A stretch of DNA of 64,000 bases from a virus (Duplodnaviria > Caudoviricetes). The translations under genes and the position numbers were made by a program. The notes under the pieces are model-generated. The model did no database searches, had not been told where the DNA came from, and worked only from the letters and a program-made list of their open reading frames with translations. The stretch is taken from IMG/VR virus record IMGVR_UViG_2061766007_000586, positions 224,001 through 288,000 of that record; one strand, written 5' to 3'. This document shows positions 1 through 9,886 of this stretch, in pieces. Each line of letters starts with the position of its first letter. Position 1 is the stretch's first letter.

Positions 1-374
1 ACTGAAATATCGATTAAATCTATTTTGAATTTCCTTGGTACAACATTACATCCTTTGTTATATATTAATCCGTGAAAGATGAAATTACTTTTATTAGTAA
101 TAAGATTTTTCGGAATGAAGAAATCAAAGTTTCCTATTTGTATTTCTTCTGAACGGCGTGGATCGATACAGAATTGAGGTGGATTAAGGAGATAAATGTC
201 ATATCTCTGTTTATCTATTGTGACTTGTACTCCAGCTACAAATGGAATATCAATTATCATGCCTAAAAACCCATCTTCATTGATATACTTTTGACACCAT
301 TTACTGATAGCATGAGCAGAAACATCAATGCATTTGATACGCGGATCATACATAATGATTTCAGGTTCAGTCAT
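1..374 (-). CDS. hypothetical protein, partial (runs off window start)
   Basis: ATG at 374 with AAGGAG SD and TATATTAC promoter at 416-423; frame open to position 1 (MTEPEIIMYDPRIKC...). Confidence 0.7.
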   Translation of the reverse strand, partial: MTEPEIIMYDPRIKCIDVSAHAISKWCQKYINEDGFLGMIIDIPFVAGVQVTIDKQRYDIYLLNPPQFCIDPRRSEEIQIGNFDFFIPKNLITNKSNFIFHGLIYNKGCNVVPRKFKIDLIDIS

Positions 375-415
375 AATTATTCTCCTTTAATTAATTATAG
401 GTTAGATCTGTTTGA

Positions 416-423
416 GTAATATA
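416..423 (-). promoter_or_regulatory. phiKZ-type early promoter core TATATTAC
   Basis: exact TATATTAC on - strand upstream of SD/ATG; motif recurs before many minus-strand genes. Confidence 0.7.
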
Positions 424-458
424 TACTTAACGATTGTATGAATTAATAAAATAAAATA

Positions 459-486
459 CAGGATCACCCGATAAAGGGTGATCCTG
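459..486 (-). terminator. intrinsic terminator
   Basis: 11-bp stem CAGGATCACCC/GGGTGATCCTG followed by T-rich run on - strand. Confidence 0.75.
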
Positions 487-499
487 CAATGATAACAAA

Positions 500-589
500 T
501 GGCGAAGAGAGTGGGATTCGAACCCACGGAGGATTTTACTCCTCGGCTGTTTAGTAGACAGCTCCCTTAAACCGCTCGGGCATCTCTTC
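500..589 (-). tRNA. tRNA-Ser(ACT)
   Basis: acceptor GAAGAGA/TCTCTTC, anticodon arm GCTGT-CTACTAA-ACAGC, long variable arm, TTCGAAT T-loop, G73, encoded CCA. Confidence 0.92.
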
Positions 590-597
590 GTTTTATA

Positions 598-1047
598 TTA
601 TTCAAACTCTTCTTTTAATTTAAGAAACAGTTGATATCTTTCATTTCTTTTTGCTTCACGTTCTCTTTCATCCTGAGCATCTGATATTTTCTTCCACATA
701 TCATCCCAATCACTTTTAGCTTCTGCTAATGATAGAAATAGATAGGAAGCAGGACATATAAGATATCTTGATACACCATTTTCTGAATCATAACCAGCTG
801 TGTATTCGATGTGAAGAATATTGTTATCATTTATATTAACTTTAACAAGTTCATCTACATAAGTACCTTCTAATTCGTGAATAAGATTTCTGAGTAATTG
901 ATCTGTCTCTTTCCAGGTATCAATTCTATCTTTACAGATAGCAATTTTATCTTCATAATGATCATACTTGGCCTGTGACATTCTCTCAACAATGATCCTA
1001 TTATATTCTGTAGGATCCATAAATCTATTTTTTTGTATGGTTCGCAT
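598..1047 (-). CDS. hypothetical protein
   Basis: 149-aa ORF between RNA elements. Confidence 0.7.
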   Translation of the reverse strand: MRTIQKNRFMDPTEYNRIIVERMSQAKYDHYEDKIAICKDRIDTWKETDQLLRNLIHELEGTYVDELVKVNINDNNILHIEYTAGYDSENGVSRYLICPASYLFLSLAEAKSDWDDMWKKISDAQDEREREAKRNERYQLFLKLKEEFE

Positions 1048-1090
1048 GACGTTTCTCTCTGCTATTATAGAAATTTAAGAAAAATAAAAA

Positions 1091-1157
1091 TCACAATAGA
1101 ATATGTATAGGGTGAGAAACCGAGTCGGTGGGGAAATCCATACATACTCTATTATGA
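1091..1157 (-). ncRNA. stem-closed small RNA candidate
   Basis: 18-bp closing stem TCATAATAGAGTATGTAT/ATACATATTCTATTGTGA with G-U pairs on - strand. Confidence 0.4.
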
Positions 1158-1280
1158 AAAATCTTCACAAAGTTGCGCTTAATCTTCTCAATATATTTCC
1201 CTCATATTAGAGAAGTAGAGGCGTAGTGAAGTACCCATTAGGTATAGTATTATACTACATGCACAAAAATAAAATAAGTA

Positions 1281-1311
1281 CTTACTCCGACCCACTAGGA
1301 GTCGGAGTAAG
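1281..1311 (-). terminator. intrinsic terminator after tRNA-Ala
   Basis: 11-bp stem CTTACTCCGAC/GTCGGAGTAAG followed by T-rich run on - strand. Confidence 0.65.
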
Positions 1312-1326
1312 CTGAGGGAGGGGGAA

Positions 1327-1403
1327 TGGTGGACCGTACCAGACTCGAACTGGTGACATCCTGCTTGCAAAGCAGGTGCTCTAGCCAACTGAGCTAACGG
1401 CCC
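1327..1403 (-). tRNA. tRNA-Ala(TGC)
   Basis: cloverleaf, loop TTTGCAA, G3:U70, CCA. Confidence 0.97.
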
Positions 1404-1410
1404 ATAAGGG

Positions 1411-1658
1411 TTTCAGGTCTTAAAGACCAACATCTAAGTCTATAACCCTGACTTAGCATGCGCATGTTTGGCGCAGCGTTGCGACCAATGTCCGGCACGA
1501 CAGTTGGGGTCTGACGCACCTGTAAGATCCGTATTACTTGATAGGAAATCCCCATACGGCACTGAGACACGTAGTAGCTGTGCACTAATCAGCTAACAGA
1601 ACCTATCATGTGCTGACCAACTTTACGTTCGTTTCTACATGATCGTTAAGGCCTGAAA
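1411..1658. ncRNA. ~250-nt multibranch structured RNA candidate
   Basis: 13-bp terminal stem TTTCAGGTCTTAA/TTAAGGCCTGAAA enclosing at least 5 hairpins; GC-rich; fills the gap between two tRNAs. Confidence 0.55.
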
Positions 1659-1659
1659 A

Positions 1660-1734
1660 TGGAGCGCGTAAAGGGAATCGAACCCTTATCATCTGAGTGG
1701 AAGTCAGAAACTCTAGCCGTTGAGCTACACGCGC
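1660..1734 (-). tRNA. tRNA-Gly(TCC)
   Basis: cloverleaf, loop CTTCCAC, U73, CCA. Confidence 0.96.
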
Positions 1735-1748
1735 TTAACAAAATAAAA

Positions 1749-2000
1749 TGGATACAAATAGTCACCAAGATTGCGACCCCTGAACATGAGAGGGACGAGT
1801 CTTAGGAGCTCTCGAGCCTCGCATACTTGTGACGTTTAGTACCTTACCTTGACACTTTCTTCTTCAGCAGGTACTTGGTGATAATGGCGGCTGTTCTGGT
1901 ACGAACCCTAACCTTCTTGTGTAGCGTATTCAGTAATAGCAAGAACACATTACCCTGTCTCAATGAGACACTACATCCGTCTTTTTACTACTTGTATCCA
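1749..2000 (-). ncRNA. ~250-nt structured RNA candidate (paralog of 2190-2437)
   Basis: 14-bp terminal stem TGGATACAAGTAGT/ACTATTTGTATCCA with G-U on - strand; sequence blocks shared with 2190-2437. Confidence 0.6.
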
Positions 2001-2007
2001 AAAATGA

Positions 2008-2079
2008 TAGCGGGGAGGAGAATTGAACTCCTACATTTGGGTTATGAACCCAACCAGCCTTCCGTGGCTGTACCCCGCG
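2008..2079 (-). tRNA. initiator tRNA-fMet(CAT)
   Basis: C1:U72 mismatch, A11:U24, GGG/CCC anticodon stem, loop TTCATAA; followed by TCA rather than CCA. Confidence 0.9.
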
Positions 2080-2092
2080 ATAATATCAAAAA

Positions 2093-2181
2093 TCTCATTA
2101 GGCAAATGATGCCTGCATCAAAACTAACAAACCAATTAATAATTAATAAGTTTAAGTGAATTTTGAAATTGCCTAATGAGA
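2093..2181. ncRNA. stem-closed small RNA candidate
   Basis: perfect 13-bp terminal stem TCTCATTAGGCAA/TTGCCTAATGAGA. Confidence 0.45.
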
Positions 2182-2189
2182 AAGTAAAA

Positions 2190-2437
2190 TGGAAATTAAT
2201 TAGCTAGCATGATTTCGACTGTACGGGAAGGACTGAAGCCTTAGGAGGGTGGTAATACGTCAGTCCAATTCAAAAGTGAACATTTATCACGCATACCTTG
2301 ATCACTTTCTAACCTTTCCGAGCTCTATACGTCTCGCAGTACATACTAGTAAGAGTTTCGCCAGTACGTGAACTCTTGAAACCCCGTCTACAAGTTACCA
2401 CCTTGTAGTTACCTTTCTTTTTACTAACTAACTTCCA
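2190..2437 (-). ncRNA. ~250-nt structured RNA candidate (paralog of 1749-2000)
   Basis: 14-bp terminal stem TGGAAGTTAGTTAG/CTAATTAATTTCCA with G-U pairs on - strand; internal hairpins. Confidence 0.6.
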
Positions 2438-2447
2438 AAATAGGAAA

Positions 2448-2551
2448 TACCTGATGAGTAAAACATGATTAGGTGTGTGGACCTTTTATTCAACCCCATC
2501 TTTGTTAAAAATGGTTAATGTTTTTTCTAATCACACTCTACTCATCAAGTA
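2448..2551 (-). ncRNA. stem-closed small RNA candidate
   Basis: 25-bp terminal stem with several G-U pairs on - strand. Confidence 0.5.
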
Positions 2552-2560
2552 CAAAATGAA

Positions 2561-2624
2561 ATCTAGTTCATAACTTCGACTTCTTTGTACCATCTATATG
2601 GCGGTCTAATAATATAAACTAGAT
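2561..2624. ncRNA. stem-closed small RNA candidate
   Basis: terminal stem ATCTAGTT/AACTAGAT flanked by A-rich linkers. Confidence 0.35.
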
Positions 2625-2633
2625 AAAATAAAA

Positions 2634-2710
2634 TCAACCAGATAGCCATACAACTTAACCCTTTAACACATAAACAATTGTTTTTGTGAAATTTTTTACT
2701 ATCTGGTTGA
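2634..2710. ncRNA. stem-closed small RNA candidate
   Basis: perfect 12-bp terminal stem TCAACCAGATAG/CTATCTGGTTGA. Confidence 0.45.
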
Positions 2711-2713
2711 AAA

Positions 2714-2783
2714 TGGAGCAGGACCTACCAGGCAGCGTATGCATCGCTAAAGAGTCTCCTCTATAACGCCCAATGTGTCCTGC
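2714..2783 (-). ncRNA. 70-nt RNA with tRNA-type acceptor stem and CCA but no cloverleaf
   Basis: GCAGGAC/GTCCTGC + T + CCA; two internal hairpins. Confidence 0.5.
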
Positions 2784-2791
2784 ATGACAAT

Positions 2792-2869
2792 TGGTCGGGG
2801 CAACAGGATTCGAACCTGCGACATCTTGCTCCCAAAGCAAGCACTCTAGCCAGACTGAGTTATACCCCG
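2792..2869 (-). tRNA. tRNA-Pro(TGG)
   Basis: cloverleaf, loop TTTGGGA, CCA. Confidence 0.97.
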
Positions 2870-2885
2870 ATAAAATTCTTAAAAA

Positions 2886-3102
2886 GCACAGAAGAGGATA
2901 GTAAGCTAGCTACCATTCTGTGCCAAGGAGGACTCACCTTCCTCCAGGATTACGACTACGCGGGATTATTCGTAGAAACGTCTACCTTCTAATCTTGATA
3001 ATTTTAGCATCAAGCAACTTCAGTAGCAAGTTAACCTCATACTAGTGTTGTCCTTCTTAGGGCAAGTCGCATCAACACATGAGCTTTTAACTCGATGAGG
3101 TT
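2886..3102. ncRNA. hairpin-dense non-coding element
   Basis: successive stems GCACAGAA/TTCTGTGC, GGAGGA/TCCTCC, CAGGATTA/TAATCTTG, AACCTCAT/ATGAGGTT. Confidence 0.45.
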
Positions 3103-3107
3103 TAAAT

Positions 3108-3183
3108 TGGGTTGGATGATGGGGCTCGAACCCACAACATGCTGAGCCACAGTCAGCCGCTCTACCATTGAGCTACATCCAAC
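3108..3183 (-). tRNA. tRNA-His(GTG)
   Basis: G-1:C73, loop CTGTGGC, CCA. Confidence 0.97.
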
Positions 3184-3188
3184 ATAAA

Positions 3189-3590
3189 TTAATCATCTAG
3201 AAAATCAGGATTATTTTTAATGAATTCTTCATAACCCTGTTCTATAGATTCTTTTTTCTTTTGATCATGTTCACATATTTCAGCTTTTTCTGAACATATG
3301 AAAAAACCACAATTACGTGAACGTATTGTGTCCCAAGCGATTCTTTCTCTTAGCAAATTTGGATTCTTTGCCATTTGTGTTTGGATAGCGAGATTCACTG
3401 CACTACAATCGCCTTTTGGTAAAATTACCAAATTGCTTGCGTCACGATTCCAATCGTTACCATCCACGCGAAATGTATTGTCTCGCCCTTTTACATAAGC
3501 ACCTGTGGCAAGTGCTTCTTTCGGAACATGCTTATTGGCACGTTTCCCATTAAAAGCATTCGCTGGTTTCTTATTCGGTTTGGTAGACAT
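3189..3590 (-). CDS. hypothetical protein
   Basis: 133-aa ORF with AAGGA SD. Confidence 0.7.
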   Translation of the reverse strand: MSTKPNKKPANAFNGKRANKHVPKEALATGAYVKGRDNTFRVDGNDWNRDASNLVILPKGDCSAVNLAIQTQMAKNPNLLRERIAWDTIRSRNCGFFICSEKAEICEHDQKKKESIEQGYEEFIKNNPDFLDD

Positions 3591-3627
3591 AAAGTGATTT
3601 CCTTATTTCAAAAACGGTTATAGAATT

Positions 3628-4206
3628 TTATTTTTTAATTTGAACCCAACTAAAATCTAGATATGTTTTAATTGGTGGTTTTTTGAAATATTCGTCAACA
3701 GCTTTTTTAACACCAAAGACACGTTCAAAACATTTGGCGTTTATGTGTGGATCATTTGGATCAACGTAATCATGTCCTGAGATAATTCCACCAGGTTTTA
3801 CTTTAGGAACATAATTGTTAAGATCACGCTTTGCTGCTTCGTATCTATGATCTCCATCGATATAAATAAAATCAATAGAGTTATCTTCAAATCTGTCTAC
3901 AACTTCTTCAGAGTGTGCTTTTACTTTTTTAATAATGGGGTTCATAAAGTGCTTATAATCAAAAAAGATTTCAGCATATACGATACTGCTATAAGCACAG
4001 CAATCTTTTGGATCATAACCCATTTGCCAAGGATCAATGCAATAAAGTGTTTTAAAAGCGCCACTCTTAACAAACATGCTTGTACTCTCACCAGCATAAG
4101 AACCTATTTCTATACCAATGAGATCTTTCTTTCCTTTTAGATATTCATCTACAAAATCTTGTAGATGACTCATACCTGCTTCACGTTGTGGATATATTAA
4201 ATCCAT
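3628..4206 (-). CDS. class I SAM-dependent methyltransferase (Methyltransf_24-like)
   Basis: EIGSYAGES, IDPW, IYIDGDH, KPGGIISGHDY motifs. Confidence 0.88.
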   Translation of the reverse strand: MDLIYPQREAGMSHLQDFVDEYLKGKKDLIGIEIGSYAGESTSMFVKSGAFKTLYCIDPWQMGYDPKDCCAYSSIVYAEIFFDYKHFMNPIIKKVKAHSEEVVDRFEDNSIDFIYIDGDHRYEAAKRDLNNYVPKVKPGGIISGHDYVDPNDPHINAKCFERVFGVKKAVDEYFKKPPIKTYLDFSWVQIKK

Positions 4207-4226
4207 ATTACTTCTCCTTATTAAAA

Positions 4227-4359
4227 GACCAAAGGTGTGTTTCTACACCAAAAGTTTTCAGGCATGGACTACCATGCTTACTCGATTCGCACAAATCTAC
4301 TCGAGTCATCCAACTACTCCTTAGCTGATGGCTACTTCTAAGCCAACAGTCCTTCAGTC
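4227..4359 (-). ncRNA. mimic of 23S rRNA H43-H44 (L11-binding GTPase-associated centre)
   Basis: TGTTGGCTTAGAAGTAGCCATCA...GTGTAGAAACACAC matches 23S UGUUGGCUUAGAAGCAGCCAUCA...GCGUAAUAGCUCAC; closing stem GACTGAAGG/CCTTTGGTC. Confidence 0.8.
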
Positions 4360-4364
4360 AACAA

Positions 4365-4456
4365 TGGCGGTGAAGGTGGGATTCGAACCCACGGACAGTC
4401 TCTCAACCGTCGCTGCTTTTCAAGAACAGAGCCATAGACCTCTCGACCACTTCACC
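4365..4456 (-). tRNA. tRNA-Ser(TGA)
   Basis: long variable arm, loop CTTGAAA, G73, CCA. Confidence 0.96.
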
Positions 4457-4460
4457 AAAA

Positions 4461-4934
4461 TTATTTATATTTTACATGATGACCATGTATAGATTTTCGT
4501 TCACCACGTGCTACTCGTTCAACACATACAGGAATTAATCCGTAATAACTTGCAAAGTCAGTAGCACTTTCAAATTCTTTTCCTGTATCAAGATCAATAA
4601 CAGGTTTAGAAAAATGATTTTCCTTTCCGTGTTTTCCGTAAAAAGGATTTTTCTCACCTTTTCGAGTTTCTTTTAATTCTTTATTTGATTTTTTAGTATG
4701 ACAACTATGGCAGAGTAATTGACATTTTTGCAATTCTGTTTCAGTTTCTTGTTTTGATCTATTTAGCAGATCACTAATATTAAATCTTTTTTCTACAGAA
4801 TTGATGTGATCAAATTCTAAATGTTCTGTTGATCCGCATTTGACACATTTTCCACCAAGTTTTGAAAGTAATTCATTTCTTCGTTTGTGATAATATTTTC
4901 TACTATAGTTTCGATGATAATCACGATTCATCAT
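4461..4934 (-). CDS. HNH homing endonuclease with NUMOD-like C-terminal DNA-binding motifs
   Basis: CxxC...LEFDH...CQLLCHSCH; GEKNPFYGKH; DTGKEFESA; own TATATTAC promoter at 4972-4979. Confidence 0.88.
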   Translation of the reverse strand: MMNRDYHRNYSRKYYHKRRNELLSKLGGKCVKCGSTEHLEFDHINSVEKRFNISDLLNRSKQETETELQKCQLLCHSCHTKKSNKELKETRKGEKNPFYGKHGKENHFSKPVIDLDTGKEFESATDFASYYGLIPVCVERVARGERKSIHGHHVKYK

Positions 4935-5026
4935 AATACTACTCCTTTGTTTGAGTGTATAAACTATAATAGTAATATATGTTCAAAAAGAAAATGGTAA
5001 TACTTTACCATTCTCTTATCAAAAAA

Positions 5027-5101
5027 TGGCATTCCGACAGGGAATCGAACCCTGATTAATAGACTGAAAATCTACTGTCCTAACCGTTAGACGACCGGAA
5101 C
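5027..5101 (-). tRNA. tRNA-Glu(TTC)
   Basis: cloverleaf, loop TTTTCAG, CCA. Confidence 0.95.
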
Positions 5102-5105
5102 ATCA

Positions 5106-5615
5106 TCATGATTTATTTAACTTAATGATTTTTTCTATGATGCTGGTGGTACTATAACCTTCTTTAAAATCAAGAATTTTAATTTCACACTTAACGGTGT
5201 CCAGTGCGTTCTTTTCTTCTTGATTTAATCCAGCTATATAATCTCCACCTTTTACATAAAAATCTGGATGAAGTTGAAGAATTTCATTTTCACATGTAGG
5301 GGAATCAAAAATAACAACGTGATACACACATGTGAGACTTGCAAGAGCATAAGCTCTATCTTGCTCATTATTGATAGGTCGGTGATCACCTTTTAAAGCT
5401 TTAACCGATTTATCACTATTGAGTAAGACAAATAATTTTCCGAACTTAGCAGCATTGTTGAGAAATTCTAGATGTCCACGATGGAGAATGTCAAAACATC
5501 CATTTGTTAGAACAACTGGAATATTGTCAAAATGAAGACATTCTCGTTCAATGATTGCTCCATCAAGATCAGTAATTGCACCTTTAATGTAATGATCTAG
5601 AATATTATCTGACAT
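5106..5615 (-). CDS. RfaE/HldE domain II-like heptose-1-phosphate adenylyltransferase (cytidylyltransferase family)
   Basis: TNGCFDILHRGH, LNSDKSVKALKG..RPI, KGGDY, GYSTTSII; likely start 5615 because 5642 lies inside the upstream terminator. Confidence 0.88.
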   Translation of the reverse strand: MSDNILDHYIKGAITDLDGAIIERECLHFDNIPVVLTNGCFDILHRGHLEFLNNAAKFGKLFVLLNSDKSVKALKGDHRPINNEQDRAYALASLTCVYHVVIFDSPTCENEILQLHPDFYVKGGDYIAGLNQEEKNALDTVKCEIKILDFKEGYSTTSIIEKIIKLNKS

Positions 5616-5636
5616 AATAGACCTTGAAATAAAAGA

Positions 5637-5668
5637 ATACACTGCATGGGTTTTACCATGCAGTGTAT
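5637..5668 (-). terminator. intrinsic terminator after DUF2828 gene
   Basis: 13-bp stem ATACACTGCATGG/CCATGCAGTGTAT followed by T-rich tail. Confidence 0.75.
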
Positions 5669-5678
5669 AGAATAACGG

Positions 5679-7160
5679 TTAACCAACCGTGATCTTTGCA
5701 TAACGTTCTGCGTTCAGAACGTTAAGCATCATCTCGATTGGCGTATCGGTGATGGCTCTCATCACATTCTTGAAGGATGAAACGGCTTGGCCCGAGCAGC
5801 AGATAGCACCCTTCCTGTCTTTATCGACGTGGAAGGTATCGTGCCTTGACTCTACGTTCCAGAATACGATACCAGGAATCTGGTATCCTTCTTCTTCGAA
5901 ACGTTTCTTGAGAGAATCATAGAACACCCAGTCAGTGTAGCGAGTACCTTCATCGATTTCCATATCGGAAATGATGATGATAGCCTTCGGCATATCTTCT
6001 GGAGCAACATGATGCTCTGTTGCGATCTTGAGAATCTTCTCAAACGCAGCTTCCAGATTTGTCGAACCACCCCAATCATTAGTATTGATACTTTGGAGTT
6101 TCTGAGCGAGCGTCTGACCCTTCAGGTGATGAAGAGTACAGTTCGAAGAGAACGACATCCACAGGTCCTTATAAGGACCTACGTTACGTTCGGCAAAGTA
6201 AATTGCCAAACCAACTGCAGATGCCATAGGACGACCAGCCATACTTCCCGAAGTATCGGCGATTACGATTGCAGACGAATTGCCTACAACGTAGTTCGGA
6301 AGGGACTTCCACTGACCTTCGACGATAGGATCTTCTTCGAAAGTGACCCCATTCCAATCCCATCTTCTTCCTATGTACTTTTCCACAAGATTGTACGGAT
6401 ACAGAGTACCAGCATTGATCTTGGCAGTACCGGCTGTGAGATTCTTGAGATAATCGAAGAAACGATCTCCATCGTGTTTCGGAAATGCCATCTTGTAGCG
6501 AAGCATGGCATGACTCGGAACAGCTTCGTAGTTGATTTCGTTCCAAGTACCATTCGACATGTGTGTTTCCACAATGTTGATGTACTTCCTCAAGCCACGA
6601 AGAAGACGCTTGAACATGCGTACTTCCATTCCGAACTTCAGGGCAGTCATGATGCCAAGTTTACGGGTCTCTTTGGAAGATCCGTCTGGAGTTTTAATCC
6701 ACTTGGCAAGAAGACTTACCGGCTTGTTCTGTCCCATGGCTTCAAGATCAGCCACGAACTGCTTCTTCATCGAAACCCACATATCGTCCTCTAAAGGAGT
6801 TCCGATCAGTGTGTATAAGTCGTCATAACGACCATACTCACCAATCAGATCGATATTGGGTCTGATACATTCCGGGTAGTGCTGGGCAGCATACTTCAGA
6901 ATCTGACGGAATGATTTCCTCTCACCGAGGCCTTCTCTTACATCACGACTGTAAAAGAGGCATCTCGTGGCGAGAAGTTTGTCCTCTGCATAGGCGTCAG
7001 AGAACAGACGTTCGATGCGGGTCTGCTCCGTGTTACGAAGAGCACCGCAGACACTGAAAAAGTCCAGAACTTTACTACCTGTCGTGTTAAGACAGGTAGC
7101 TCCATTTTCGGTGCGAGAGTGGGTTGCTTCCTTTGCGAAAGCGTTTGCAAATGTTGTCAT
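5679..7160 (-). CDS. DUF2828-family Ro60/TROVE-like protein with vWA (MIDAS) domain
   Basis: TENGA, RDVREGLGER, LLAKW; MIDAS DTSGSM...GGSTN...ISDME; FWNV; start 7160 with GAAAGGAG SD. Confidence 0.85.
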   Translation of the reverse strand: MTTFANAFAKEATHSRTENGATCLNTTGSKVLDFFSVCGALRNTEQTRIERLFSDAYAEDKLLATRCLFYSRDVREGLGERKSFRQILKYAAQHYPECIRPNIDLIGEYGRYDDLYTLIGTPLEDDMWVSMKKQFVADLEAMGQNKPVSLLAKWIKTPDGSSKETRKLGIMTALKFGMEVRMFKRLLRGLRKYINIVETHMSNGTWNEINYEAVPSHAMLRYKMAFPKHDGDRFFDYLKNLTAGTAKINAGTLYPYNLVEKYIGRRWDWNGVTFEEDPIVEGQWKSLPNYVVGNSSAIVIADTSGSMAGRPMASAVGLAIYFAERNVGPYKDLWMSFSSNCTLHHLKGQTLAQKLQSINTNDWGGSTNLEAAFEKILKIATEHHVAPEDMPKAIIIISDMEIDEGTRYTDWVFYDSLKKRFEEEGYQIPGIVFWNVESRHDTFHVDKDRKGAICCSGQAVSSFKNVMRAITDTPIEMMLNVLNAERYAKITVG

Positions 7161-7174
7161 AATAAAGCTCCTTT

Positions 7175-7235
7175 CATGACACGTTAAATGCATAAATTTG
7201 CAGTTTATGAAATTGGGTTTGCTGTTAGCGTCACA
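7175..7235 (-). ncRNA. CAGCAA-motif hairpin A, abutting the SD of the DUF2828 gene
   Basis: TGTGACGC-TAACAGCAA...GTGTCATG; inner CATAAA-CTGCAAA-TTTATG. Confidence 0.6.
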
Positions 7236-7244
7236 TTCACTAAA

Positions 7245-7301
7245 CAGGACACGGAATAATAACTAAAAAGTAATTATTTGATTGATTTGCTGGATGTGCC
7301 C
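7245..7301 (-). ncRNA. CAGCAA-motif hairpin B
   Basis: GGGCAC-ATCCAGCAA...GTGTCCTG. Confidence 0.6.
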
Positions 7302-7327
7302 CAATGGTGATAAAGGATCTAAAGAAA

Positions 7328-7579
7328 TAGAAAGAGTAGGATTGGATACCTACATTTCAGCTTGAGGATTGCTTTTTGTTCGAAGTTGCAATCTTACTTC
7401 ACCTAGTTAATCTTCTTGGCGATGGCGCAATACTTACTTTCGCGTAAGCATGCAGTTACACTAGAATTTAATAATAGATAAAGTTTTGTTTGCTGTAAAT
7501 GCCACATACATGACATTCTTCCAAACTTTGTTCTAGTTGATTTACATCTCTATAAATCAACTTATTGAACTATCTTTCT
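7328..7579 (-). ncRNA. expanded tRNA-like RNA 3 (~250 nt)
   Basis: AGAAAGA/TCTTTCT acceptor; TA-GTTC...GAAC D-stem with extra hairpin; GTAGG/CCTAC T-stem; permuted CAGCAA hairpin. Confidence 0.7.
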
Positions 7580-7593
7580 AAAATACGAAAAGA

Positions 7594-7707
7594 TGAGCAG
7601 AGTAGGACTCGAACCTACATTCCGAGATTACTAATCTAAGTATCTTGCAGTTAATGACCTGAGAAGGACATATTTTTACGTGTTCTCTCCTGTTGAACTA
7701 TCTGCTC
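7594..7707 (-). ncRNA. expanded tRNA-like RNA 2 (~114 nt)
   Basis: GAGCAGA/TCTGCTC acceptor; GTTC/GAAC D-stem; GTAGG-TTCGAGT-CCTAC T-arm; anticodon region replaced. Confidence 0.78.
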
Positions 7708-7718
7708 GTAAAGTGAAA

Positions 7719-7765
7719 CAGGACGCATTGATCATTTATTGATGATAAATTGCTGTGAGCGTCCC
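7719..7765 (-). ncRNA. CAGCAA-motif hairpin C
   Basis: GGGACGC-TCACAGCAA...GCGTCCTG. Confidence 0.6.
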
Positions 7766-7771
7766 AGAAAA

Positions 7772-7906
7772 TGGTGGAGAGGGTAGGATTTTCACCTACA
7801 CATAGAAGTCCATTGATCTATTTAATTAAAAATAAATTTGCGGCGAGTGTCACACTGCAACATGACACCACATAAATACTTCTTGCTCTAATTGAGCTAC
7901 CTCTCC
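7772..7906 (-). ncRNA. expanded tRNA-like RNA 1 (135 nt, CCA encoded)
   Basis: GGAGAGG/CCTCTCC-A-CCA; GCTC/GAGC D-arm; AGAAGT/ACTTCT stem enclosing ~70 nt; GTAGG-TGAAAAT-CCTAC. Confidence 0.8.
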
Positions 7907-7954
7907 AAAAGGTACAGTAGAGATATATATAATCGTAATTTATTTGAGTTAAAA

Positions 7955-8031
7955 TGGTACACCAGACGGGGTTCGAACCCATGACCCTCTGCTTAGAAGG
8001 CAGATGCTCTATCCTACTGAGCTACTGGTGC
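7955..8031 (-). tRNA. tRNA-Arg(TCT)
   Basis: cloverleaf, loop CTTCTAA, CCA. Confidence 0.97.
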
Positions 8032-8513
8032 ACATTATCTGATTCTAATGGAGACCTTACGGTTTGTTCAAGTTTAGTGAAAAACAATACTTCAAAACCT
8101 ATTATACCATTTGCGTTTAACCAATCTGCTACTAAATGTCTATGACAAAATTCCATAGGTTTTTCATAGCAAATTAAACATGGTTGTTTTCCGTCAGTTT
8201 TTTCAAGCAATTCTGACATAACTTGTTTTGGATCTAGTTTACCTAAAATTTCTTCATTGAAGCGTTTTGTGTAAATTTCATTATCGTGGTGGTTGAATTT
8301 CCAATCACTGTAAATACTCCAGGAAGGTGCTAGTTTTTTATACTGAATCCCAGAATACCAATCAGGTGCTTTACCACAGATAGAGACAGGAACTATAGAA
8401 CCAGGCATGTTTAGAATATCATTAAGTTTAGCAAAATATGAAGTTCTAAACTCTTGCCATTGAATTTCTTTCCCATTTATAGTAAGTGGCCATATAGGTT
8501 GTAAGTTTGACAT
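8022..8513 (-). CDS. DUF488-family protein
   Basis: LAPS...Y..RF...CLICYEKP.EFCHRHLVADWL; start 8513 with AAGGA SD (the longer ORF begins inside tRNA-Gln). Confidence 0.8.
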   Translation of the reverse strand: MSNLQPIWPLTINGKEIQWQEFRTSYFAKLNDILNMPGSIVPVSICGKAPDWYSGIQYKKLAPSWSIYSDWKFNHHDNEIYTKRFNEEILGKLDPKQVMSELLEKTDGKQPCLICYEKPMEFCHRHLVADWLNANGIIGFEVLFFTKLEQTVRSPLESDNVHQ

Positions 8514-8530
8514 TTTGATTTTCCTTAAAA

Positions 8531-8604
8531 TGGTAGTCCCGTCGGGATTTGAACCCAAACTAACTGGACCAAAACCAGTTGTGCTGCCATTACACCACAG
8601 GACT
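8531..8604 (-). tRNA. tRNA-Gln(TTG)
   Basis: cloverleaf, loop TTTTGGT, CCA. Confidence 0.95.
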
Positions 8605-8680
8605 ATTTATACTTTCGTATACAATATCAAATATACACAAAAATATATTGTGGATGCAGGATAAAACCTGCATCCGTTTG

Positions 8681-9091
8681 TTACTTATTTTTAAAGTAGT
8701 TGATACAGTTTTGCATAAACCAAATAAATGGATTAAGCAAAAATCTGTATGCACGAAGTTCTTCTGTATCTTGTACGGTTGGATTTACTAATGCATTATC
8801 AATTGCATTTTGTATAGCTTTTTTGGGAGTAAGCCCAGTAGCTATAATCCAATCTTTAGAAGAATTAAACTCAATAGTCCTGGCAAAGATAATTTCACCA
8901 TGCCCAGCGGACTTATTGATGTAGCAGACATATTGATCGTTGAAATGAAGTCTATTGTCAGTAGGGTCTAATTTCCTGACATAAATGCACTTTTTACCAT
9001 ACATGTTTCCGTAAAAATTATGATTATTAATACATGCAGGTCTAAAGTCGTGTTCAAGTAACCAATATATCTCGTTAAAGTCTGCAGTCAT
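8681..9091 (-). CDS. hypothetical protein
   Basis: 136-aa ORF followed by a hairpin terminator at ~8652-8675. Confidence 0.7.
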   Translation of the reverse strand: MTADFNEIYWLLEHDFRPACINNHNFYGNMYGKKCIYVRKLDPTDNRLHFNDQYVCYINKSAGHGEIIFARTIEFNSSKDWIIATGLTPKKAIQNAIDNALVNPTVQDTEELRAYRFLLNPFIWFMQNCINYFKNK

Positions 9092-9261
9092 AAATTTTCC
9101 CTATGGTTAGTTAATCTTCAACTGCGAATATATAAACTACACGAGGTAGAGAGATGTTACATGACCCATAACATAATAGTAATATATGTATTAAATAAAA
9201 ATGAAAGAAAAAAGAACCCAGGATTGCTCCTGGGTTTTTCGCCGTTAGGCAGTCGTTTCAG

Positions 9262-9423
9262 TTAGGCAGTGGCTTCAGCCGACTCGTCAGCTTCAGCATT
9301 TTTCTCTGCGTCAGCTGCTTTGTTGGCATCATGTTCCCACTTTTTGCCGATGGCGTAGCAGGTACCAAAGGTACCGATGACTCCGAGGACGACTCCGGCG
9401 GCGAGAATGGCGATGACTTTCAT
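9262..9423 (-). CDS. small membrane protein with N-terminal TM helix
   Basis: AAGGAG SD before ATG 9423; MKVIAILAAGVVLGVIG. Confidence 0.7.
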   Translation of the reverse strand: MKVIAILAAGVVLGVIGTFGTCYAIGKKWEHDANKAADAEKNAEADESAEATA

Positions 9424-9466
9424 AGTTGAACTCCTTATGTTGAGTTGGTTGTTAAAGGCATTTGCC

Positions 9467-9886
9467 TTAGGATTTGTGAATGGCGAGATCAATTCCGACA
9501 GCAGCCGATGCAATCAGAATACCGATCGAGACGAAACCGACTTTGGTCCAGAACGATGTTTTCTTCGGCTGGGCTTCGACAGCAGTCCATATTTCCCAAC
9601 GGAATTTGGCACCGTCGGGAAGCTTGTCAGCACCGAGAGGAAGTCTGGGCCCATCGTACTGGGCCACACAAACCACATCGCCGGGCTTGACTGCCGTAGA
9701 GACACGATTGAAATCCACCTGCTTTCCGAGAAGATCAGAAAGGATCTTGGCGGTGTCTTCGTGGCCGACCACAGAAGTGGCATCTTTCGCCTGAGCTTTG
9801 AAGGTTTCAAGATCAACGATCTTGACGTCGAAGTGCATGTCGTTATGGACCATGCCGGAACTGAAAACGTTGTTGAGGTACTTCAT
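9467..9886 (-). CDS. acrIII-1: AcrIII-1 / DUF1874 (STIV B116-like) cA4 ring nuclease with C-terminal TM helix
   Basis: YLxNxFSxxM, SxxGHxxT, NRV, QxxxxRLxxG motifs as recalled for SIRV1 gp29 and YddF. Confidence 0.85.
   Translation of the reverse strand: MKYLNNVFSSGMVHNDMHFDVKIVDLETFKAQAKDATSVVGHEDTAKILSDLLGKQVDFNRVSTAVKPGDVVCVAQYDGPRLPLGADKLPDGAKFRWEIWTAVEAQPKKTSFWTKVGFVSIGILIASAAVGIDLAIHKS

Follow-up and report, generated by a model that had tools for sequence, protein, structure and literature searches.

Two stretches of about 250 nt lying among the tRNA genes of a jumbo phage, here called copies A and B, are very probably genuine, homologous structured RNAs that are under selection and belong to a new family. 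The explanation that accounts best for all the observations is that they form a paralogous family of ~250-nt ncRNAs, proper to a jumbo phage lineage, freed from a tRNA precursor and acting in trans, and this explanation is considered probable as a whole.

Both copies are carried by the first part of the window, the stretch of 64,000 nt that was analysed, which corresponds to bases 224001-288000 of a 318,604-bp (318.6-kb) virus. This uncultured phage encodes large virion proteins and a tail sheath of the phiKZ type. According to a block scan, nhmmer and a covariance model, the whole 318.6-kb genome holds exactly two copies of the family. Positions are those of the window and the features of both RNAs are collected in Table 1.

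Placement of the two copies in a tRNA array

Ten to eleven tRNA genes are found at positions 1-8600 of the window and every one of them lies on the - strand. On this strand, the order is tRNA-His, tRNA-Pro, B, tRNA-Met, A, tRNA-Gly and tRNA-Ala. Copy A is thus flanked by tRNA-Met (2006-2080) and tRNA-Gly (1660-1734). Downstream of copy B, tRNA-Met lies about 190 nt away, a stem-closed element of ~100 nt being located between them. The linkers that separate A and B from the tRNAs are short and U-rich. The only strong intrinsic-terminator-like sites found nearby on the - strand are located downstream of the array, at 1312-1280 (just after tRNA-Ala) and 488-457, and no intrinsic terminator was found between members of the tRNA run holding A and B. 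Since strong terminators occur only after tRNA-Ala, we infer that the run from tRNA-His to tRNA-Ala, including A and B, is a single transcription unit. An ORF of the + strand (1875-2159) crosses tRNA-Met and was rejected as spurious.

Judging from their position, A and B would be co-transcribed with the tRNAs and probably become separate, stable RNAs when the tRNA precursor is processed. Trimming of the flanking tRNAs by RNase P, RNase Z/E and exonucleases would free A and B, whose ends would coincide with the blunt closing helix P1. The folded RNAs would then act in trans, their invariant loops and junction providing a binding surface. This surface would be recognized by a component of the translation or RNA-metabolism machinery, either a protein or a further RNA, and no base-pairing to mRNAs would be involved.

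Other structured elements are found in the same array. A third stem-closed RNA of ~250 nt, unrelated in sequence to A and B, lies between tRNA-Gly and tRNA-Ala (1404-1659, - strand); for this RNA, RNAalifold on three lineages predicts 84 pairs, including an 18-bp closing helix, and in 15 of these pairs both partners are substituted. A U run comes after the 12-bp closing helix (CUCAUUAGGCAA/UUGCCUAAUGAG) of the ~100-nt element between B and tRNA-Met (2081-2186, - strand). This element shows 87-98% identity to the sister phages described below, with a C-G to U-A double change in one of them (L062), and may represent either another small RNA or a signal for processing or termination.

Upstream of A and B, at 3.3 kb and on the same strand, lies a gene encoding a Ro60-like DUF2828-vWA protein (5679-7193). 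Upstream of this gene, a set of odd tRNA-shaped RNAs includes 7775-7906 (- strand), where the Rfam tRNA model matches a stretch of 132 nt with 42 bits without any ARAGORN call; it is predicted to be a tRNA-like RNA with a large insert. Just upstream of tRNA-His, a gene (3189-3590, - strand) encodes a basic, Cys-rich protein of 133 aa that has only two clusters (99% and 78% identity) among 5.8 billion proteins and no IMG/VR locus. This gene is missing at the DNA level from the corresponding place in L062.

Table 1. Features of copies A and B (positions in the window; RNA letters; P, helix; HP, hairpin)
Feature	Position	Strand	Sequence or remark
Copy A, whole RNA (P1 first to last base)	1750-1999	-	250 nt
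Copy B, whole RNA (P1 first to last base)	2191-2436	-	246 nt
Shared 11-mer	1980-1990 (A), 2416-2426 (B)	-	UAGUAAAAAGA; top of P1 and A-rich single strand; invariant
Shared block	1845-1860 (A), 2294-2310 (B)	-	AGAAAGUG(A)UCAAGGUA
Shared block	1801-1808 (A), 2240-2247 (B)	-	CUCCUAAG
Shared block, junction element	1769-1777 (A), 2211-2219 (B)	-	GUCG(C/A)AAUC
A P1, 5' strand	1988-1999	-	pairs with 1750-1761
A-specific 5' domain	1914-1975	-	62 nt; UGUAG/CUACA, GUCUC/GAGAC, GGUAA/UUACU, UUCUUG/CAAGAA
A HPc	1893-1906	-	GUUC-GUACCA-GAAC
A P2, 5' strand	1874-1881	-	UCACCAAG; pairs with 1762-1769; P2 abuts P1 on the 3' side
A P2a/P2b, 5' strand	1863-1872	-	ACCU-G-CUGAA; pairs with 1776-1784 (UUCAG-GGGU)
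A HPa	1829-1855	-	3-bp stem GUG/CAC; conserved 21-nt loop UCAAGGUAAGGUACUAAACGU
A HPb, long hairpin	1785-1825	-	CUCCUAAG (1801-1808) in apical loop
A junction element	1769-1777	-	GUCGCAAUC; GU pairs in P2a; CGCAAU is the internal loop; last C opens the P2 3' strand
B HPx, B-specific hairpin	2388-2408	-	CUACAAG-GUGGUAA-CUUGUAG
B HPc	2352-2385	-	GGGGUUUC ... GAAACUCU; 18-nt loop with CACGUAC
B P2, 5' strand	2342-2349	-	CUAGUAUG; pairs with 2204-2211; invariant among B orthologues
B HPb', B-only small hairpin	2319-2336	-	CGAG-ACGUAUAGAG-CUCG
B HPa	2272-2309	-	8-bp stem; loop UCAAGGUAUGCGUGAUAAAUGU
B HPb	2230-2266	-	GGACUGA/UCAGUCC; 23-nt loop carrying CUCCUAAG (2240-2247)
B junction element	2211-2219	-	GUCGAAAUC; same element as in A

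Homology, conservation and distribution of the family

The first-pass annotation proposed two paralogous functional ncRNAs forming a new family, in which unpaired blocks are conserved and stems have diverged. All the blocks that it listed occur on the - strand where it placed them. The closing stems indeed differ (GGAUACAAGUAG/CUAUUUGUAUCC in A, GGAAGUUAGUUAG/CUAAUUAAUUUCC in B) and the inner helix does covary (UCACCAAG/CUUGGUGA in A, CUAGUAUG/CAUGCUAG in B). It also named two results that would have spoken against it, shared blocks without significance and a match to a known Rfam family, and neither was obtained. A and B have 21 7-mers in common, compared with 5.4 +/- 2.8 (maximum 17) in 500 dinucleotide shuffles, and nine 8-mers compared with 1.4 +/- 1.5; the remaining spacers of the array have just 1-10 7-mers in common with A or B. 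With respect to Rfam 15 (4227 models), the whole window gave only tRNAs at the gathering threshold, positions 1-9500 gave no match in A or B at E<=5, and the isolated stretches 1735-2005 and 2180-2450 gave, at E<=10, only a 23-nt lncRNA fragment on the other strand. In particular, the models of RNase P RNA, tmRNA, SRP RNA and 6S RNA do not match A or B, and neither ARAGORN nor RF00005 calls a tRNA in them.

Homology between the copies is further supported by a covariance model (R1) built from the inner (P2) domain of three B sequences only. This model matches all four A sequences end to end with 21.9-28.1 bits and E-values of 6e-5 to 2e-3 (95 kb searched), the next-best match having an E-value of 0.43 and the rest of the window giving nothing below 0.4, although E-values of such home-made models are rough. 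In P2 itself, four of the eight pairs differ on both sides between A and B, and the helix lies in the same place when the conserved UAC and GUCG-GNRA-UC elements are taken as landmarks. The cross-match of R1, the lack of any Rfam match and the compensatory changes described below all support the proposal of two paralogous ncRNAs of a new family. Because a joint MAFFT alignment of A and B misaligns their centre, separate alignments and a model-based alignment were used.

Two of the blocks had been described as appearing in swapped order. The block UGCGAG..AGAGCUC does occur in both copies and in a different order, but this does not reflect the permutation of a conserved module. In B it corresponds to HPb' and in A to the base of HPb (the CUCCUAAG hairpin). 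Since it reads UGUGAG..AGAUCUC in copy A orthologues, it does not belong to the conserved core of the family. The likeness, which is not selected in A, may go back to a duplicated hairpin or may have arisen by chance.

Scanning metagenome contigs for the HPa loop led to 15 stretches, three of which (L062, L063 and L073) contain all the other blocks. Each of these three carries both copies, in the same order and about 450 nt apart. L063 and L073 are identical across the region, so that three lineages are available when the window is counted. The order B, small element, tRNA-Met, A, tRNA-Gly and next RNA is the same in the window and in the three contigs. Between the window and L062/L063, identity reaches 93-95% for copy B and 85-87% for copy A, compared with 75-83% for tRNA-Met, 54-59% for the unstructured spacer just upstream of B and 65-72% for the nearby coding DNA that aligns to the sister contigs. 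The identity of A and B is therefore above that of the nearby coding DNA and far above that of the adjacent spacer, which indicates that selection acts on the RNAs themselves. This high conservation could partly result from a recent exchange of tRNA modules between phages; however, the low identity of the spacer located inside the same block argues against it.

Within the RNAs, variation is lower in unpaired than in paired columns (0.13 versus 0.18 in A, 0.08 versus 0.12 in B), which agrees with the conserved unpaired blocks and diverged stems announced from the sequence; in the P2 domain of copy A, only three unpaired columns vary. One-base indels among the orthologues of A and B exclude a coding reading. 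Many constant G-U pairs and G-U intermediates identify the - strand as the RNA strand.

Outside these contigs, no relative was found. A blastn search of 1300-3200 against 50,697 phage records gave matches through tRNA genes only. In IMG/VR, the 16-mer AGAAAGUG(N)UCAAGGUA has 56 matches, all due to chance and without a second block nearby, and a three-block pattern has none. In the same way, a pattern scan of 185,579 species genomes gave 18 matches, none of which was confirmed by model R2. Used as single-protein queries, the DUF2828 protein and the tail sheath retrieved no relatives, while a tail-sheath profile found one in IMG/VR (L175, IMGVR_UViG_3300045988_145650; 278 kb, sheath 44% identical). 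This nearest IMG/VR relative has no detectable homologue of A or B. As there is no homologue in L175 or in the 185,579 species genomes, the family is, as far as can be seen, confined to one narrow phage lineage. In ENA and Logan, sheaths that are 42-57% identical occur in a clade of large contigs (200-300 kb).

Folds and candidate tertiary contacts

Helices were drawn by eye from the three-lineage alignments and then tested by pair counts and by blind RNAalifold, which recovers P1, P2, HPa, HPb, HPc and HPx. The proposed pairs are kept at 99% across the three lineages, and stems whose sequences have diverged remain paired, with compensatory changes in nearly every helix; with three independent lineages only, the support for a given helix comes from one to three substitution events.

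The two RNAs share a common architecture. Their ends form P1 (12-13 bp), which is followed by an invariant A-rich strand, UAAAAAGA. Then comes a variable 5' domain, a 62-nt unit in A and a single 7-bp hairpin (HPx) in B, and next HPc, whose loop contains GUAC in both copies. In the long-range helix P2 (8 bp), the 3' strand continues directly into that of P1. After P2, a conserved internal loop opposes U to C-GNRA-U, the variants found in the family (GCAA in A, GAAA or GAGA in B) all fitting GNRA. P2a covaries between the paralogues (ACCU/GGGU in A, ACUG/CAGU in B). The junction beyond it bears HPa and HPb, both with invariant loops: that of HPa reads UCAAGGUA-N2-3-GU-NN-UAAAYGU and that of HPb contains CUCCUAAGR.

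The final model of copy A comprises 69 pairs, with 99.0% of the cells forming standard pairs. Nine pairs are changed on both sides; six slid controls yield 0-1 such pairs, and the count is not attained in any of 500 shuffles. These double changes affect P1, three of the four helices of the 5' domain (one each), HPc, the outer pair of P2 and HPb. In P1, pair 6/253 passes from G-C to A-U among the lineages, with a G-U intermediate. The loop of HPc is preserved in sister phages (CCA-GUACCR-UGG), where three of the four pairs of the stem carry substitutions in both strands. In P2, the outer pair (123/242) is U-A, U-G or C-G depending on the lineage, and one pair of HPb (191/207) shows a G-C to A-U change. 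In A, the conserved loop between P2 and P2a is a 1 x 6 internal loop (U versus CGCAAU). In the 5' domain, the helix UUCUUG/CAAGAA crosses UGUAG/CUACA and each of them has one compensatory change, which makes them a candidate H-type pseudoknot. A nested helix, GUGUUC/GAAUAC, competes with it and the alternatives are not separable on three lineages.

Some earlier pairings of copy A were given up. The first models of HPb and of a hairpin HPd were dropped, since the longer nested helices of RNAalifold carry an extra double-sided change. A pseudoknot P3 (UACC/GGUA) was set aside in favour of P2a, with which it competes and for which there is covariation between the paralogues.

The final model of copy B comprises 59 pairs (99.4% paired) with three double-sided changes, compared with 0-1 in the controls. 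Two of these are located in HPx, where L062 reads CCAUAAG/CUUAUGG, and the third is an A-U to G-C change in HPa (pair 135/168). P1, HPx, HPc and P2 meet in a four-way junction, which forms the core. HPc has two registers, an alternative stem (AAGAGUU/AACUCUU) being mutually exclusive with the one retained and not separable from it on three lineages. A long-range ACGGG/CCCGU pairing is broken in two lineages and was rejected.

Several contacts between loops can be proposed. GUAC occurs three times in each RNA (six times in 496 nt), i.e., 12.1 per kb compared with 3.3 per kb in the genome, and its sites include, in both RNAs, the HPc loop and the position directly after the 5' strand of P2. The HPc loop begins, in each copy, with 5-6 bases complementary to the centre of the HPa loop (GUACC/GGUAC in A, CACGUA/UGCGUG in B). 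Loop shuffles reach this complementarity with P of 0.07 and 0.20, so that the case for an HPc-HPa tertiary contact is weak. Between the copies, UACC(A/G) in the HPc loop of A is complementary to (U/C)GGUA in the HPx loop of B in each of the three lineages, and matched changes have turned A:U into G:C in L062, which is a single event; a blind search for inter-RNA helices gives several equally good chance candidates. The 11-nt GAAA tetraloop receptor was considered and discarded, CCUAAG being located in the apical loop of HPb and not opposite UAUGG; the UAUG of A pairs with CAUG at the base of HPb and B has UAUU. T-loop and k-turn readings were also rejected.

Possible modes of action and closest known systems

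How the two RNAs would act can only be ranked tentatively. A protein-binding scaffold is the leading candidate, and neither it nor any other mode goes beyond a tentative suggestion. An RNA-only assembly comes next, then a ribozyme or processing element, and lastly, on a par, Y-RNA-like partners and mimics of cellular RNAs. A broader reading, which is unlikely, would see in A and B the founders of a new class of phage RNAs, compact and pseudoknotted, that are active by themselves, either as ribozymes or as RNA-only particles, possibly A-B heteromeric. Such RNAs would be made from the tRNA operon and would act on the translation or RNA-surveillance machinery of the host.

OLE and raiA RNAs, like ROOL and GOLLD, associate into RNA assemblies. 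ROOL and GOLLD are phage or prophage RNAs located near tRNA islands that form RNA-only cages (PMC12286853), and A and B, phage-borne and placed among tRNA genes, share this setting. A and B could thus associate with themselves or with each other through loop-loop contacts and build a larger architectural particle, although this is rather unlikely. The frequency of the self-complementary GUAC and the A-B loop complementarity with its matched change are in favour of this reading. However, this last match is a single event equalled by chance candidates, and the HPc loop can pair with the HPa loop of its own RNA instead. Furthermore, the ROOL (~580 nt) and GOLLD (>800 nt) RNAs are two to three times longer than A and B (246-250 nt), which are less than half the size of ROOL and well below ~500 nt, and the ROOL and GOLLD models do not match A or B, so that the setting is the only attribute of these families that they display. 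ROOL and GOLLD also have elaborate folds, pseudoknots and conserved loops and are without known protein partner or function; their oligomeric cages have been demonstrated, whereas A and B show candidate loop complementarities.

A and B could also be ribozymes or cis-acting processing elements, the junction being either a catalytic core that acts on the tRNA precursor or on itself, or a scaffold for host RNases. The concentration of invariant nucleotides in junctions and loops while stems covary, the candidate pseudoknots and the location directly between tRNAs with short U-rich linkers would fit this explanation. It appears very unlikely, however, as neither copy matches a known self-cleaving class or an RNase P model, inspection of the alignments reveals no hammerhead-type core common to both copies, and elsewhere in the array tRNAs are processed although no such RNA lies beside them. 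In addition, the blunt P1 helix already accounts for stable ends and no catalysis is needed.

The nearby DUF2828-vWA gene, on the same strand, raises the question of Y-RNA-like partners of its Ro60-like product. In Y RNAs, the 5' and 3' ends form a long closing stem, as in A and B. Bacterial and phage Y RNAs (YrlA), which act with Ro60/Rsr, combine this long terminal stem with a modular inner part, and A and B likewise share a gene cluster with a Ro60-like gene. Nevertheless, neither copy is matched by the Y RNA models of Rfam, and the motif ACAGCAA is found upstream of the Ro60-like gene (7219, 7490 and 7750, - strand) but not within 1746-2440. Moreover, DUF2828 proteins are an abundant family, and the examination of 80 DUF2828 loci of other phages (+/-10 kb, 1.46 Mb) gave no R2 match at E<=5 and no significant R1 match. 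As no member of the family accompanies the Ro60-like protein in these 80 phage loci, a Y-RNA role of A and B is unlikely, to the point of being highly improbable. In the whole window, ACAGCAA occurs 24 times compared with 10 +/- 3 expected, and no shuffle reaches 24.

Equally improbable is a mimic or derivative of a cellular RNA, i.e., an inflated tRNA, a copied rRNA segment or a decoy for the anti-Shine-Dalgarno sequence. CUCCU, carried by the HPb loops, is the core of the 3' tail of 16S rRNA, and the four-way junction of B could also recall a cellular model. Against this, ARAGORN and the Rfam tRNA model remain silent, and the best local alignments to E. coli 16S, 23S and 5S rRNA (rrsH, rrlH and rrfH) score 19-21, no better than the shuffle means of 19.5-20.7, in comparisons of sequence. 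In the loops, CUCCU is followed by AAG, versus UUA or UUU in 16S rRNA. An encoded CCA end was rejected as well: the 'CCA' after P1 of A is UCA in sister phages, and the CC before the 3' tail, replaced by UC, is paired and covaries as a part of P1.

Lastly, it is hardly credible, and largely refuted, that A and B are not functional and merely reflect chance similarity, a duplicated spacer or DNA-level repeats: the very rare family has only two copies in one genome, but the word sharing exceeds that of shuffles, the compensatory changes include G-U intermediates, and both copies are conserved above the neighbouring tRNA and far above the adjacent spacer.

The explanation retained is that of trans-acting RNAs freed from a tRNA precursor. 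By their setting, the closest analogues of A and B would be ROOL, GOLLD and the species 1 and 2 RNAs of T4 (rnaC and rnaD). The latter are small stable RNAs of the T4 tRNA operon that are transcribed together with its tRNAs and freed by tRNA-processing enzymes, and the release proposed for A and B is modelled on them. They are roughly half the size of A and B, and a comparison of sequences showed no likeness.

As in these examples, phage tRNA islands repeatedly contain orphan structured RNAs. The functions of the T4 species 1 and 2 RNAs, ROOL and GOLLD have resisted decades of work. With ~250 nt and a clear core supported by covariation, A and B are tractable for the study of structure and partners, and two diverged paralogues provide a natural mutational comparison. 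They also add to the evidence that this jumbo phage lineage devotes a whole operon to ncRNAs.
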